25,260 nucleotides of DNA from a virus. Shown in pieces: positions 3,110 to 24,774 of this stretch. The stretch lies in IMG/VR virus record IMGVR_UViG_3300023296_001674; one strand, written 5' to 3'. Below the pieces are notes generated by a model. The model was given only the letters and a program-made list of their open reading frames with translations, ran no database searches and was not told the DNA's origin. Numbering within the stretch: the stretch's first letter is position 1; each line of letters opens with the position of its first letter. The position numbers and the translations under genes were made by a program.

Positions 3110-3394
3110 GAGCAAACGAGATCGAATACAGTGTTAACGCGGAACGAGACTGCTAGGAACACTTAAAATATACCTAATATGGGCGCGTTGTGGATGGATT
3201 TCCTTTTGTGGAATGATAAAAGCAATGGTAGGAAGCAAAGCGACCTACTAGGGAAAGCGTTATATGCTTTCCTGATAAGTTATTTTGTATGGAAGTGCCA
3301 TTAAAGCAGAACAATTGGTTTGGCGACCAAGCACCTTCGGGGCATAAAATCTGCTACTACTATACTATTTTAATCATAACTAAGTGTCACAAAA

Positions 3395-3464
3395 TATTGT
3401 ATGGTGTAGTGGTAACACGCTGCCTTTATCGGCGGAGCCGTGGGTTCGAGTCCTACTATGATAT
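3395..3464 (+). tRNA. tRNA-like element (AU-rich acceptor, D and T arms fold; anticodon loop irregular; no CCA), possible pseudogene
   Basis: Acceptor TATTGTA/TATGATA; D stem GTGT/ACAC; T arm GTGGG-TTCGAGT-CCTAC. Anticodon stem CTGCC/GGCGG leaves only a 6-nt loop. Confidence 0.3.
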
Positions 3465-3565
3465 TTGGATTACGTTCAGTGTGCACACCGAACGCCACAA
3501 ATTATCTGTTATTATCGCGATAGTGATAGATAATGTTGGGTCACTTAGTTATGATTAAAGTTTTT

Positions 3566-3822: not shown

Positions 3823-4377
3823 ATGGAACTAGAAACATATCTTAAAGATTATGGCTTAACTGATGATATTATACGTTATGCTATATTCACTGGTACATTA
3901 ACCAAATATAGTATTTCAGATTGGCGTGTTATATGTTATATAATCGACGATCCTGATTTAGATCGTGAAACAAAAGTAGCCATGATTGAAAAAGCATTTA
4001 AAGATGATAAATGGCGTGCCAAAGAATTATTTGTTTTTATTGAAACATTAAATCAATTTGTAAAAGCAGATGATATTCTTTCAGGGGCACACGAAAAAGA
4101 TTCATGGGGAAAAGGTACACCATCTGAGCAATTTGCCATATCAGTGTCGCTCTGTGAAGCACTTAAAAAAATGAAAACCGAAAATAAATTAAACAGCGAT
4201 GAACAAATTGATGTTTTTGACCGATTTGTTGTATACATTATGGATATGTTTTCACCCGAAATGGTTGTGTTGACATTCAGACATGCTATCAAACAATATG
4301 GTATAAAATTCGATATACATAAACATTCCGAATTTAAAAAAGCAATGAAAGCATATAATCGTATAATATTAGCATGA
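3823..4377 (+). CDS. hypothetical protein (184 aa)
   Basis: SD TAGGAGA upstream; TGA stop overlaps the next start (ATGA). Confidence 0.65.
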   Translation: MELETYLKDYGLTDDIIRYAIFTGTLTKYSISDWRVICYIIDDPDLDRETKVAMIEKAFKDDKWRAKELFVFIETLNQFVKADDILSGAHEKDSWGKGTPSEQFAISVSLCEALKKMKTENKLNSDEQIDVFDRFVVYIMDMFSPEMVVLTFRHAIKQYGIKFDIHKHSEFKKAMKAYNRIILA

Positions 4378-4679
4378 AAGCATATAAATTATTCAAAAAA
4401 CGAAAAGATGGTTCAATTGGACCACTTTTCATTAATGCCAAAATGCGTATACCATTAAATGTGTGGCTGGATGCTGAAGATCATCCAACCAAAGGTTATG
4501 CACATAGACCAGGATGGCATGCTGGCGCTGAACCAAATGCACCACACCTAAGTGAAAAAGGACGCGTTTGGTATGAAGTAGAAATAAAAGACTTTGTGAC
4601 ATTTAAACGACCCATCAATCAAGGTGGTGAATGGTTGATTGCACAAAAAATCAAAGTGATAGGTGAATATCACAAATAA
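4374..4679 (+). CDS. hypothetical protein (101 aa)
   Basis: Translationally coupled start (ATGA overlap). Confidence 0.6.
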   Translation: MKAYKLFKKRKDGSIGPLFINAKMRIPLNVWLDAEDHPTKGYAHRPGWHAGAEPNAPHLSEKGRVWYEVEIKDFVTFKRPINQGGEWLIAQKIKVIGEYHK

Positions 4680-4682
4680 TAT

Positions 4683-4757
4683 GGACCGGTAACTCAGAGG
4701 CAGAGTGTTCGCCTTTTAAGCGAAACGTCGGGATTTCGAAATTCCCCCGGTCTACCA
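4683..4757 (+). tRNA. tRNA-Lys (anticodon UUU), CCA encoded
   Basis: Acceptor GGACCGG/CCGGTCT (G1·U72); D ACTC/GAGT; anticodon stem TTCGC/GCGAA, loop CTTTTAA. T arm GGGAT-TTCGAAA-TTCCC has a U53·U61 mismatch. A73, CCA. Confidence 0.75.
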
Positions 4758-4766
4758 ATCACTTAT

Positions 4767-4841
4767 GCACGATAGATAACTGGGGTTACGACGGCTTTTA
4801 CATGGCTGTTGTGGTGGGTTCGATTCCCACATCGTGTACCA
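4767..4841 (+). tRNA. tRNA-Val-like (anticodon UAC), short D arm, CCA encoded
   Basis: Acceptor GCACGAT/ATCGTGT; T arm GTGGG-TTCGATT-CCCAC; anticodon stem CGGCT/GGCTG with loop TTTACAT. D arm TAAC-TGGG-GTTA is non-standard. Confidence 0.5.
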
Positions 4842-4852
4842 ATACAATATAT

Positions 4853-4927
4853 GGACCGGTAGCTCAGAGGCAGAGCGTTCGCCTCTTAAGCGAAATGTCG
4901 AGATTTCGAAATTCTCCCGGTCTACCA
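4853..4927 (+). tRNA. tRNA-Lys (anticodon CUU), CCA encoded
   Basis: Paralog of 4683-4757; loop CTCTTAA. Compensatory D-stem (GCTC/GAGC) and T-stem (GAGAT/TTCTC) changes. Confidence 0.75.
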
Positions 4928-4936
4928 ATACCTTAT

Positions 4937-5011
4937 GCTCGATAGATAACTGGGGTTACGACGGCTTTAACATAGCTGTTGTGGTGGGTTCGATTCCCAC
5001 ATCGAGTACCA
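4937..5011 (+). tRNA. tRNA-Val-like (anticodon AAC), CCA encoded
   Basis: Paralog of 4767-4841; acceptor GCTCGAT/ATCGAGT (compensatory). Loop TTAACAT, with the closing pair changed from U·G to U·A. Confidence 0.5.
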
Positions 5012-5094
5012 ATATTTTTGATACACATAATGGTTTAGTGTATTGATAAACCGGCTGTGGGTGAAGCGGTATAACAAATGTCTACCCCCAATAT

Positions 5095-5169
5095 GGTCGT
5101 GTAGCTCAAAGGCAGAGCATTCGCTTTACATGCGAAAGGTTGTGATATCGTAATTCACCACGACTACCA
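5095..5169 (+). tRNA. tRNA-Val (anticodon UAC), CCA encoded
   Basis: Acceptor GGTCGTG/CACGACT; D GCTC/GAGC; anticodon stem TTCGC/GCGAA, loop TTTACAT. T arm GTGAT-ATCGTAA-TTCAC has a U53·U61 mismatch. Body related to the Lys genes. Confidence 0.6.
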
Positions 5170-5224: not shown

Positions 5225-5617
5225 ATGGAATATGCATGGAATGATAAAATAGTTGAAGCGAATTTTAATTTTGATTCTGCGTATGAACATACGGAATGGG
5301 GATGTGATGATGGATATACATCATTATCGGTGTTGATTAATCGATGCCAAAATATGATAAAACTAAGATACACAAATGTTAATCGCATCCCGCCAAAAGT
5401 GCCTATGCCGATAACGCCGTGGTCGTTTGTTCTTGATGACATAGATATAGTAGTATATATGACATTGCGGTGCTATGATATATTTCTTATGGACACAAAA
5501 ACGTTTGATTATAGGCAGCATTTTACTATTAAAATCGATGACGATATGGATGATAATATAATAATAGTGTCATCTGTTGATAATGTATATACAGAAGCAA
5601 TAAGAATTCTAAAATAA
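5225..5617 (+). CDS. hypothetical protein (130 aa)
   Basis: SD TAGGAGA 7 nt upstream. Confidence 0.6.
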   Translation: MEYAWNDKIVEANFNFDSAYEHTEWGCDDGYTSLSVLINRCQNMIKLRYTNVNRIPPKVPMPITPWSFVLDDIDIVVYMTLRCYDIFLMDTKTFDYRQHFTIKIDDDMDDNIIIVSSVDNVYTEAIRILK

Positions 5618-5740: not shown

Positions 5741-5816
5741 GGAACCCAGGTATATCTGGTGAGTACGCGTGGTTGAAGTTCACGAGGACGCAGTTCGATC
5801 CTGCGGGGTTCCACCA
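5741..5816 (+). tRNA. tRNA with anticodon GAA (second Phe-like isoacceptor), CCA encoded
   Basis: Acceptor GGAACCC/GGGTTCC; anticodon stem CGTGG/TCACG, loop TTGAAGT; T arm CGCAG-TTCGATC-CTGCG. Confidence 0.6.
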
Positions 5817-5831
5817 ATCAAAGACCATTAT

Positions 5832-5906
5832 GGACCGTAGGTGTAATGGCTGCATCCGAGCCTTTTAAGCTCAGGGGACAGAGTTCGATTCTCTGATGGT
5901 CTACCA
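5832..5906 (+). tRNA. tRNA-Lys (anticodon UUU) paralog, CCA encoded
   Basis: Acceptor GGACCGT/ATGGTCT; D GTGT/GCAT; anticodon loop CTTTTAA on stem (C)GAGC/GCTC(A); T arm CAGAG-TTCGATT-CTCTG. Confidence 0.6.
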
Positions 5907-5915
5907 ATAATCAAT

Positions 5916-5991
5916 GCCGTATTAGTGACACTGGCTAACACGCCTGTTTTGTAATCAGGAAAATGGGGATCGATACCTCAATATGGCACCA
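5916..5991 (+). tRNA. tRNA-Thr (anticodon UGU), CCA encoded; T loop ATCGATA
   Basis: Acceptor GCCGTAT/ATATGGC; anticodon stem CCTGT/TCAGG, loop TTTGTAA; T arm TGGGG-ATCGATA-CCTCA. Confidence 0.55.
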
Positions 5992-13764: not shown

Positions 13765-13843
13765 TTGACTAGTAGCTCAGTGGTTTAGAGCGGGGAGTTC
13801 TAAACTCTCGACAGCGTTGGTTCAAATCCAACCTGGTCAACCA
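13765..13843 (+). tRNA. putative amber-suppressor tRNA (anticodon CUA, reads UAG); CCA encoded
   Basis: Acceptor TGACTAG/CTGGTCA; D GCTC-AGTGGTTTA-GAGC; anticodon stem GGGAG/CTCTC, loop TTCTAAA (U33, C34-U35-A36, A37); 7-nt variable region; T arm GTTGG-TTCAAAT-CCAAC; A73-CCA. Confidence 0.6.
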
Positions 13844-20328: not shown

Positions 20329-20436
20329 TTCCAAGTAGCTCAGATGGTAGAGCGTCTGACTGTGGAACAGATGAGCCTAAAGCTTTGAAGTTCAAATTTA
20401 ATCAGAATGTCGGCGGTTCGATCCCGTCCTTGGAAG
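20329..20436 (+). tRNA. aberrant tRNA-like gene, 108 nt, no CCA: canonical 5' half and T arm separated by a ~39-nt insertion after the anticodon arm
   Basis: Acceptor TTCCAAG/CTTGGAA perfect; D GCTC-AGATGGTA-GAGC; anticodon-like stem TCTGA/(A)CAGA with loop CTGTGGA (GUG); insert contains TTGAA-G-TTCAA; T arm GGCGG-TTCGATC-CCGTC. Confidence 0.35.
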
Positions 20437-20575: not shown

Positions 20576-20667
20576 GCCTCGGTAGCTCAGAAAAGCAACG
20601 TAAGTTGTAGTGTAGTAGCAGGTGACTGAACCTCACCGTGTCGGTAGTTCGAATCTATCCTGGGGCA
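20576..20667 (+). tRNA. aberrant tRNA-like gene, 92 nt, no CCA: ~20 extra nt in the D region
   Basis: Acceptor GCCTCGG/CTGGGGC; 5' D stem GCTC with no partner; anticodon-like stem GGTGA/TCACC with loop CTGAACC (GAA); T arm GGTAG-TTCGAAT-CTATC. Confidence 0.35.
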
Positions 20668-20711: not shown

Positions 20712-20787
20712 AGTTCCGTAGCTCAGTGGATAGAGCGCAACTTTGCGAAAGTTGAAGTCGGTGGTTCGATCCCACTCGGGACTGCCA
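20712..20787 (+). tRNA. tRNA-Arg (anticodon GCG) with canonical body (CCGTAGCTCAGTGGATAGAG… resembles the E. coli Arg-ACG body), CCA encoded
   Basis: Acceptor AGTTCCG/CGGGACT; D GCTC-AGTGGATA-GAGC; anticodon stem CAACT/AGTTG perfect, loop TTGCGAA; T arm GGTGG-TTCGATC-CCACT. Confidence 0.75.
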
Positions 20788-23740: not shown

Positions 23741-24368
23741 ATGCTTAGAGGAACACGTTTGATGACTGGTGCGGAAGCATCTACATACACGAACACTGTT
23801 GACACACTACGGAGGTGTCTTCATCGATAATAATGTCGAAGAAGTTATAGTTCCGTCGTTATGGGAACAGCAGACATTTATTGATAAAGCAGGAAGTGAA
23901 ATTGTAAATCAGATGTGGGCATTTGAAGATAAGAAAAATCGCCCCGTATGTTTGATACCAGAAGTTACTGGTGTTATACAAGAAATGTGGCGCGATGATT
24001 GGAGTAAATCCAAACCAAAGCCATATTCTATTTTTTATGTGAATCGTTGTTATCGTTATGAACGACCACAGAAGGGTAGATATAGAGAATTCACACAAAT
24101 CGGATTAGAAATTCTTGGTGATACATCAGGGAATGATTACGATATGGCAATTAATTTATTGCAAAAGTGTCTCGATTGTTTTACTATAGATTATAAACTT
24201 ACAGAAACGGTACAACGCGGTTTGGCGTATTATGTTGATGATGGGTTTGAAGTCGAATGTGAGAAGTTGGGCGCACAGAAGCAAATTGCTGGTGGTGGTC
24301 GATACAATGAAGGTATTGGTTGGGCTATCGGCGTTGATAGATTAATATTGGGGATTGATGATGACTAG
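23741..24368 (+). CDS. miniaturised histidyl-tRNA-synthetase-like protein (class II motifs 2 and 3) requiring a +1 frameshift near 23804-23812, or a frameshifted pseudogene
   Basis: Frame A (ATG 23741, SD AAAGGAGAAAG) encodes MLRGTRLMTGAEASTYTNTVDTL (compare HisRS …[23 protein letters not shown]) and stops at 23828. Frame B (+1, open from 23769) encodes …YGGVF…MWAFEDKKNRPVCLIPEVTG…CYRYERPQKGRYREFTQIG…IAGGGRYNEGIGWAIGVDRL. No anticodon-binding domain. Confidence 0.55.
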
Positions 24369-24774
24369 TTTACACCTTATTACTTCACCGCGTGAATATG
24401 TGACAACTATGACACATAACTCGGATTATCTTCAGTCTTGCAAGACTAATAAACCATCATGGAAAAAAGCGGATCGTTCATTTCATACACTCGAAAATGG
24501 TGACAAATTATTTAATGTGTACTATGATAATGGTAAATTATGCGTGCAAAGATGGTATCAAAAAAGTGCTAAAATTGAATCTAATGATCTTCATCGATTG
24601 GATGGTCCAGCATATATATCTTATTATGAAAATGGCATGTATTATCGATCTTCGTGGTGGATCAATGGAAATTCTATTTCAGGCAAAGTGATGCGATCAT
24701 GGTTAAAAGAAAATAATATTTCTTCGCCATATTCAGATGAAGATCAAATGGCAATAATATTAAGGTGGGGATGA
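24355..24774 (+). CDS. hypothetical protein (139 aa) with repeated Gly/Tyr/Trp-rich motifs
   Basis: Start overlaps the upstream stop; TGA stop. Confidence 0.5.
   Translation: MMMTSLHLITSPREYVTTMTHNSDYLQSCKTNKPSWKKADRSFHTLENGDKLFNVYYDNGKLCVQRWYQKSAKIESNDLHRLDGPAYISYYENGMYYRSSWWINGNSISGKVMRSWLKENNISSPYSDEDQMAIILRWG

Follow-up and report, generated by a model that had tools for sequence, protein, structure and literature searches.

The DNA of an uncultured jumbo phage contains, within a tRNA array of about 22 kb, a cassette of two tRNA genes, one for Lys and one of an atypical Val type, that is present twice in tandem, the copies differing at both wobble bases with no base pair newly broken. 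We favor, with a probability of about 0.6, a tandem duplication of this cassette followed by divergence at the wobble position with the helices preserved. A 170-bp segment would have been duplicated head to tail inside the array, after which each gene would have had a redundant copy; for either gene, one of the copies would then have fixed a single change at position 34, and the other changes that survived would have kept the helices. As a result, the phage would make two isoacceptors for Lys, with UUU reading AAA/AAG and CUU reading AAG, and two species of Val type, with UAC reading GUA/GUG and AAC reading GUU. We infer that these genes are transcribed, processed, and aminoacylated with Lys and Val, respectively, and that A34 stays unmodified.

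A repeated two-tRNA cassette

The window, by which we mean the whole 25,260-nt stretch of viral DNA that was analyzed, contains at 4679-5014 on the plus strand a tandem repeat with a period of 170 bp, 2.0 copies, 92% matches, no indels, and a score of 588 in Tandem Repeats Finder. The same repeat is seen in a pairwise alignment and in BLAST self-hits. Unit 1 extends from about 4679 to 4848 and unit 2 from about 4849 to 5014, and each unit carries one canonical tRNA-Lys and one atypical Val-type tRNA. ARAGORN calls four 75-nt genes inside the repeat, Lys(ttt), Val(tac), Lys(ctt), and Val(aac), which have in common G1·U72, discriminator A73, and an encoded CCA. The tandemly duplicated two-tRNA cassette of ~170 bp that an earlier note on this DNA had described is thus borne out by Tandem Repeats Finder and alignment, at 92%. 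Its gene identities hold in part: all four genes are called with the anticodons it gave and the Lys genes are canonical, but the Val-like genes are structurally aberrant and lie under the Rfam tRNA threshold.

As the source is metagenomic and assemblers can be confused by repeats of 92% identity, reads of two strain variants might have been collapsed or chimerically joined. Such an artefact is, however, excluded as the origin of the repeat. A 74-kb contig in Logan SRR7528202 has the same sequence, including the unit junction, with 1 mismatch in 14,679 bp that falls at window position 12, far from the repeat. Likewise, ENA ERZ27315625, an independent assembly, contains the same repeat sequence with its junction. 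Hence, two different assemblers and samples yield identical sequence from unit 1 across the junction into the beginning of unit 2, and the same neighborhood is found on several further contigs of 0.2 to 1 Mb. Given this agreement between independent assemblies and the size of the other carrier contigs, the repeat is real and borne by a jumbo phage.

Differences between the two units

Aligned over 4675-4844 and 4845-5014, the units differ in 15 columns, 10 of which lie within the genes. In the Lys gene, pair 10:25 (4692/4706) is A-U in unit 1 and G-C in unit 2, pair 50:64 (4731/4745) is G-C in unit 1 and A-U in unit 2, position 34 (4715) is U and C, respectively, and variable-loop position 45 (4726) is C and U. 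In the Val-like gene, pair 3:70 (4769/4835) is A-U in unit 1 and U-A in unit 2, pair 31:39 (4804) is U·G and U-A, and position 34 (4799) is U and A. Outside the genes, there are 2 differences in the 9-nt Lys-Val spacer (4760-4761) and at most 3 at the unit boundary (4675-4678). All of the anticodon and stem differences listed in the earlier note are present in the alignment, whereas those at Lys position 45, in the spacer, and at the unit boundary are additional to its list. In crystal structures of class I tRNAs, position 45 is in contact with the 10-25 pair, as in the 10-25-45 triple of yeast tRNA-Phe, and this contact would explain why it changes together with the 10:25 swap in the Lys genes.

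Pairwise alignment and a count of paired substitutions, the check that the earlier note proposed, gave three compensated pairs, one pair changed on one side only, and none newly broken among the 44 pairs counted. When the 3' partners were slid by 1 to 3 columns as a control, no compensated pair was found. In a simulation in which 10 random substitutions were placed on the 150 nt of gene sequence, the probability of obtaining at least three compensated pairs was ~2e-5, that of breaking no pair was ~0.005, and that of hitting both positions 34 was ~0.004. A shuffle control on the pair counts (68/500, or 1/8) is powerless with two sequences, and the substitution simulation was used instead. The substitutions thus preserve structure and are strongly non-random relative to the cloverleaf; a random scatter, the outcome said beforehand to speak against the proposal, is clearly not what the alignment contains.

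What the compensated pairs say about selection is narrower than had been claimed. They had been read as a sign of selection on both copies, which is overstated: when just two sequences can be compared and an orthologue is lacking, such a pair is evidence of constraint in no lineage but the one that underwent the swap. Constraint on both copies may be argued from the absence of disruptive changes, in a comparison of just two sequences. The genes are less diverged than the spacers, with very few neutral sites available for calibration: 10/150 compared with 5/20 when the unit boundary is included (Fisher p = 0.019) and with 2/9 for the internal spacer alone (p = 0.14). Because the spacers differ by ~20%, the duplication is not fresh, at odds with the picture of a cassette "caught switching" its anticodons in a recent event.

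Divergence of this extent, ~8% overall and ~20% in the spacers, is substantial for a local duplicate and would also fit a different history. Two related phages may each have carried one Lys and Val-like cassette, already diverged, which homologous or unequal recombination during coinfection joined, so that the divergence preceded the tandem arrangement. The change between A3-U70 and U3-A70, which needs two transversions and has no stable intermediate, would be easier over a long separate history, and phage tRNA arrays are mosaic, as illustrated by the open reading frame (ORF) at 4374-4679, whose homologues lie on 16 unrelated viral contigs without synteny or adjacent tRNAs. However, searches of IMG/VR, the JGI metagenomes, GTDB genomes, and GenBank phages recovered no single-cassette genome of either type, and the Val-like body is otherwise unique to the source phage, which makes the two donor lineages hypothetical. 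We consider such a union unlikely; the end state and its functional reading would be the same either way.

The Lys genes and their scaffold family

Both Lys genes of the cassette are canonical cloverleaves on the plus strand that are called by ARAGORN and match RF00005 over its full length (model positions 1-71) above the 29-bit gathering threshold. Lys(UUU) at 4683-4757 scores 54.5 bits and has G1·U72, A10-U25, a T stem GGGAU/UUCCC with U53·U61, C45, A73, and an encoded CCA. Lys(CUU) at 4853-4927 scores 58.1 bits and has U45, and comparison with its family shows that its G10-C25 pair and its T stem GAGAU/UUCUC are both consensus states. A third tRNA-Lys(UUU), on the plus strand at 5832-5906 (ARAGORN; Rfam, 42.5 bits), has an unrelated scaffold with A8 and is predicted to add Lys-UUU redundancy to the array. 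The D arm of this gene, GGUGUAAUGGCUGCA, is also found in a Val(GAC) gene of L027 (L0xx labels denote other loci fetched for comparison).

The body of the cassette Lys genes, GGACCGGUAGCUCAGAGGCAGAGC...GUCGAGAUUUCGAAAUUCUCCCGGU, is a scaffold that is present in many uncultured phage tRNA arrays and allows part of the divergence to be polarized. All ten other distinct members of this family have G10-C25, and A10-U25 of unit 1 is therefore the derived state, opposite to the direction ACTC/GAGT to GCTC/GAGC that had been proposed. Among the ten changes, 10:25 is the only pair that the family polarizes: the 50:64 state varies within it and both anticodons occur in it, so that neither the 50:64 pair nor the anticodon can be assigned a direction. 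The arrows drawn in the earlier note from UUU to CUU and from UAC to AAC are likewise unpolarized, there being no orthologous cassette in the collections searched. As the search for an orthologous cassette in single copy, which covered IMG/VR, JGI metagenomes, GTDB genomes, and GenBank phages, recovered none, the order and direction of events are conjectural. A search with a pattern of the Lys anticodon arm returned 25 loci, mostly with unrelated tRNA-Lys genes and a few with non-tRNA sequence, and none with an orthologous Lys gene. Interrupted genes on the Lys scaffold were seen in L019, L022, L026, and L028.

Among the 30 window tRNAs and 12 family members, the nearest relative of each copy is its tandem partner (92% and 95% identity), the next-best identity being 75% to another window tRNA and 84% to a family member. 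The partners are thus mutually closest, differ by one base in the anticodon (U34/C34 and U34/A34), and belong to one amino acid family each. A change of both wobble bases within the amino acid family is the expected look of isoacceptor divergence after duplication, which is supported by these comparisons. The earlier proposal of isoacceptor neofunctionalization by duplication accordingly stands as far as the duplication, the non-random pattern, and the within-family wobble changes are concerned, with decoding by the Val-like genes as its conjectural part.

Family comparisons show that U34/C34 switching is recurrent on the Lys scaffold, and the window holds the latest switch among those compared here. 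Nearest neighbors in the identity matrix often have opposite Lys anticodons, as at 93% (L023, CUU, and L027, UUU) and 95% (L024, UUU, and L031, CUU), and Lys UUU and Lys CUU occur together in 11 of the 36 other tRNA-bearing loci fetched. The 95% identical genes, at 13605-13679 of L024 and 305-379 of L031, come from different phages and differ at U34/C34 and at 31:39 (G·U versus U-A), a parallel to the Val-like pair of the window, in which the wobble base and pair 31:39 have likewise changed together.

The Val-like genes

The Val-like genes lie on the plus strand at 4767-4841 (UAC) and 4937-5011 (AAC); both were called by ARAGORN, folded with RNAfold, and unreported by the Rfam tRNA model. Their body sequence is GATAGATAACTGGGGTTACGACGGCTTT. 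The UAC copy has a 7-bp acceptor with A3-U70, A8, a compact D hairpin UAAC/UGGG/GUUA, an anticodon stem of 5 to 7 bp closed by U31·G39 with the loop UUUACAU, a canonical T arm GUGGG-UUCGAUU-CCCAC, A73, and CCA, and the AAC copy has the same body with U3-A70, U31-A39, and A34. In a 1.6-kb search, RF00005 (gathering threshold, 29 bits) had no match at either gene even with E up to 10, and Rfam kept there only same-clan tmRNA fragments of 15.5 bits.

The departures from a standard tRNA are concentrated in the core, where A8 and C14 replace the canonical U8 and A14. The D arm contains either an A10·C25 mismatch or a 4-nt loop, its best pairing being UAAC/GUUA around a UGGG tetraloop, and thus differs from the canonical 4-bp stem 10-13/22-25 with a loop of 7 to 11 nt. 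In the minimum free energy (MFE) fold, a 10-bp anticodon helix is formed and the D arm is omitted; the anticodon helix can be extended to 7 to 10 bp, and the variable region has 3 to 5 nt. The remainder is canonical and comprises the 7-bp acceptor, the discriminator and CCA, a 5-bp T stem with a UUCRAUY loop, here the canonical GUUCGAUUC T loop, equivalents of G18G19, and a 7-nt anticodon loop with U33 and R37, which reads U33, A35, C36, and A37. The main identity elements of E. coli ValRS are A35, C36, and A73. The two copies differ at 4 of 75 nt and the adjacent spacer at 2 of 9, and since none of these four changes is disruptive, the Val-like genes are probably atypical but functional tRNAs. 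In view of their score below the Rfam tRNA threshold, their aberrant D arm, and A8, their role in decoding is one that we infer. A8 instead of the near-universal U8 is found in four tRNAs of the array (5741-5816, 5832-5906, 4767-4841, and 4937-5011), and the two outside the repeat still pass Rfam at 42 to 45 bits.

The main alternative as to function denies a decoding role to the AAC copy at least, if not to both Val-like elements, which would be pseudo-tRNAs in decay or tRNA-like RNAs that serve as a decoy or a processing element. The acceptor compensation would then reflect constraint in one lineage or templated quasi-palindrome correction rather than selection. This would be consistent with the sub-threshold Rfam result, in which the best match is a tymovirus element at 25 to 27 bits against a threshold of 40, with A8, the non-canonical D arm, and an MFE fold that lacks it, and with the rarity of A34 outside Arg (3 of 301 tRNAs in other loci). 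In addition, a canonical Val(UAC) gene lies 84 bp downstream, and neither Val-like copy is obviously needed for GUA/GUG. Decay would, however, be difficult to reconcile with the lack of any disruptive change between the copies next to a spacer that differs at 2 of 9 positions, with the intact acceptor, A73, CCA, T loop, G18G19 equivalents, and U33, A35, C36, A37 loop, and with the passing Rfam scores of the other A8 tRNAs of the array. Moreover, the AAC anticodon corresponds to GTT, which the sampled ORFs use more than any other Val codon. On balance, we think it quite unlikely that these elements are pseudogenes or decoys.

Other identities for these elements were considered and rejected. To the tymovirus valylatable tRNA-like structure (RF00233), the Val-like genes score 25.0 and 27.1 bits against a gathering threshold of 40 bits, and their acceptor is an ordinary 7-bp end-to-end helix. 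The Tymo_tRNA-like, YrlA, tmRNA, and snoRNA matches in the repeat region are all far under their thresholds. Exact and gapped patterns of the Val-like genes matched no orthologue in IMG/VR, JGI metagenomes, or GTDB genomes; the sole genome match was an ordinary Kiritimatiellae tRNA-Val(CAC) that has only a common anticodon arm with the pattern. At 4259-4335 and 4616-4692 of L023, there are two Val genes (GAC and UAC) called by ARAGORN only, with A8 A9, compact D hairpins, and scores below the Rfam tRNA threshold. Together with the window genes they may represent a recurring atypical type of tRNA-Val; a MAFFT alignment of the two sets was uninformative.

The canonical tRNA-Val(UAC), at 5095-5169 on the plus strand (ARAGORN; Rfam, 52.9 bits), makes the Val-like UAC copy redundant. 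Its D arm and its anticodon stem UUCGC/GCGAA are common to the Lys pair, to which it is 73 to 75% identical in an all-versus-all comparison. This likeness suggests either an older alloacceptor (Lys/Val) remolding or a common phage scaffold. L032 has a Val(UAC) gene on the same scaffold.

Codon usage and reading of A34

Across the 4,866 codons of 33 window ORFs, Lys is encoded by AAA 284 times and by AAG 80 times, and Val by GTT 130 times, GTA 67 times, GTG 51 times, and GTC 12 times. As predicted from its anticodon, Lys(CUU) adds dedicated reading of AAG. No Val(GAC) gene is present in the array or in the fetched flanks (~5.6 kb upstream and 8 kb downstream), and with Val(UAC) as the other Val species, AAC is the only phage-encoded Watson-Crick reader of GTT. 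The least ordinary element of the cassette is thus what appears to be a phage Val(AAC) on an atypical body that matches the commonest Val codon in the sampled ORFs.

When A34 is left unmodified, the tRNA reads chiefly codons that end in U (PMC11066159). TadA recognizes the motif UACG, that is, U33-A34-C35-G36 (PMC13170351), and the loop of Val(AAC), U-U-A-A-C-A-U, has UAAC at this place. With UACG lacking, deamination of its A34 by an E. coli-type TadA is unlikely. Known A34 tRNAs include bacterial tRNA-Arg(ACG) and tRNA-Leu(AAG), which are edited by TadA, and eukaryotic tRNA-Val(AAC), which is edited by ADAT2/3 (PMC8266599, PMC11066159). Like these, Val(AAC) has a genomically encoded A34 in a four-box tRNA; in contrast, it is a phage gene with UAAC instead of UACG in its loop and an atypical body. 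A34 outside Arg was found in 3 of 301 tRNAs in the other phage loci surveyed, and none of the three is a Val tRNA. Val(AAC), unprecedented in this set, could be a recent mutation that has not yet been purged.

A bolder reading would place the Val-like pair in a new structural class among phage elongator tRNAs, defined by A8/C14, the compact D hairpin, and the extended anticodon helix, with an unmodified AAC species reading GUU and with the duplication and wobble changes driven by nuclease escape as much as by codon supply. We judge this improbable; if true, it would make Val(AAC) a naturally occurring tRNA-Val of the bacterial world that works with its A34 unmodified.

The array and its phage

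The source is an uncultured jumbo phage with ~30 tRNAs and its own L7/L12, initiation factor 3 (IF3), and AspRS. The window has 36% G+C and contains 27 ARAGORN and 26 Rfam tRNA calls, all on the plus strand. No tRNA was found in the fetched 5.6 kb upstream or 8 kb downstream, so that the window contains the whole array within the fetched span. Small ORFs among the tRNAs encode, among others, a thymidine kinase, a fatty acid desaturase, a sulfotransferase-like protein, a dual-specificity phosphatase, L7/L12 (16800-17129), a HisRS-like fragment (23769-24774), and two HNH/EndoVII-like proteins. IF3 (L033, 5047-5562) and a full-length bacterial-type AspRS (L060, 16365-18179) are encoded just outside the window, the latter adjoining three tRNA-Asp genes. 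The HisRS-like fragment consists of a 199-residue class II core followed by an overlapping ORF of 139 residues and is possibly split or frameshifted. These features are like those of the huge phages described by Al-Shayeb et al. 2020 (PMC7162821), which have tRNA arrays with their own translation genes: ~30 tRNAs, a suppressor tRNA, an aminoacyl-tRNA synthetase, IF3, a ribosomal protein, and contigs of >200 kb. That study catalogues repertoires, and neither the window cassette nor a Val(AAC) gene is described there.

Megablast of the 25 kb against GenBank phages revealed no close relatives, distant blastn only generic tRNA similarity to phage tRNA-Lys/Asn genes, and tblastn with DUF7275 at most 49.5% identity. 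The 408-residue ORF has no relatives in IMG/VR. The ORF at 4374-4679 (101 residues, phrog_12224) has 55 to 81% identical homologues on the 16 unrelated viral contigs mentioned above, which include contigs of 197 and 298 kb, and two weaker partial matches. None of these 18 loci contains any other window gene or adjacent tRNAs, and the ORF therefore behaves like a small mobile phage gene.

Several other tRNAs of the array are unusual. An amber-suppressor-type tRNA with anticodon CUA lies at 13766-13843 (ARAGORN, "Pyl"; Rfam tRNA, 57 bits); recoding of TAG in connection with it was considered and rejected, as read-through of the six TAG-terminated window ORFs adds only 1 to 44 codons. Rfam-only tRNA matches with internal insertions are found at 20329-20436 and 20576-20667. 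Of these, one is 108 nt long with ~35 extra nt just 3' of the loop CUGUGGA (His-like GUG) and the other is 92 nt long and is interrupted in the D loop; each terminates in CAA instead of CCA, and neither insert comes near the length of a group I intron. Furthermore, the tRNA-like gene at 3394-3465 (ARAGORN, "???"; Rfam, 46.9 bits) lacks CCA and has 6 nt in its anticodon loop, and a tRNA found by Rfam only (43 bits) at 5916-5988 has UGU in the anticodon loop. The tRNA-Arg at 20712-20787 has the anticodon GCG, not the usual bacterial ACG, as have genes in three other fetched loci (L020, 79-153; L030, 574-648; L046, 579-651).

Origin of the repeat and comparison with known systems

Of the 26 encoded-CCA tRNAs called by ARAGORN between 3394 and 25210 of the window, 24 have AU, usually as AUA, as their 3' flank, and the 5' flank is UAU or AAU for the majority. 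These conserved leader and trailer flanks may be processing signals, and they would offer microhomology for unequal recombination. The likely mechanism of the tandem duplication would be unequal recombination, with the exchange taking place in the short AT-rich flanks found on either side of nearly every array tRNA (...UAU|tRNA-CCA|AUA...). Sequence of this kind is present at the unit borders (ACAAAUA|AUAUGG upstream and ACCAAUA|UUUUUG downstream), with ~4 extra bases at the junction relative to a simple microhomology join.

A short tRNA segment repeated head to tail is also known from the 718-bp tRNA-Tyr/segB repeat of T6, in which the homing endonuclease SegB drives segmental tRNA amplification against Septu (PMC13096335). 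That repeat likewise lies in a large myovirus-type tRNA region and has microhomology at its borders. In contrast, the window unit holds only its two tRNAs and no endonuclease gene, is present in two copies only, and is 8% diverged, and it is therefore an old duplication that has become fixed, not a newly made dosage ladder. No homing-endonuclease gene is found in or adjoining the unit, the flanking ORFs at 4374-4679 and 5225-5617 having no nuclease domain, and the nearest HNH-like ORFs are >6 kb away. Amplification driven by a homing endonuclease is historically possible, but it is not supported, given the lack of an adjoining endonuclease gene and the age of the copies.

The duplication and wobble changes may also have been selected by host defenses that target tRNAs, rather than by codon demand. 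In this scenario, amplification raises dosage, and a tRNA with a changed wobble base or a rewired core would no longer be recognized by anticodon nucleases that attack tRNA-Lys(UUU). Experiments have shown that phage tRNA segments are amplified in tandem under defense pressure (PMC13096335), tRNA-Lys(UUU) is a known target of PrrC, and phage tRNAs have been proposed to evade such enzymes (PMC10264068; PMC11555353). Three or four Lys genes and HNH/EndoVII-like ORFs are present in the array. However, the latter are remote from the repeat unit, and the copies are old and diverged, unlike a fresh, near-identical ladder. Furthermore, the phage Lys anticodon loop, CUUUUAA, is identical to that of E. 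coli tRNA-Lys. Defense-driven selection is compatible with the duplication-divergence model but hypothetical, and we regard it as quite unlikely.

Isoacceptor anticodon shifts after tRNA duplication have been described by Rogers and Griffiths-Jones 2014 (PMC3923123) and Yona et al. 2013 (PMC3868979), and anticodon shifts in tRNA arrays were predicted by Tran et al. 2016 (PMC4758250). As in these cases, a redundant paralogue has gained one anticodon substitution within the same amino acid family on an intact body. In contrast to them, the genes are those of a phage, two adjacent genes are duplicated as one unit and both have changed at position 34, and the window case is without a syntenic orthologue to polarize the change. 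The cassette is an unusually clean instance of a known process, anticodon shift after duplication, and does not constitute a new class.

In summary, a single duplication can here be read base by base, the surviving changes falling at a decoding base or preserving a helix or a tertiary contact. The Val(AAC) species on its atypical body would be useful for studying decoding by unmodified A34 and the minimal tRNA core that is tolerated by bacterial ValRS and ribosomes. Finally, the cassette supports the view that phage tRNA arrays widen their decoding range by local duplication and wobble mutation, a course that the wider Lys family shows to recur.
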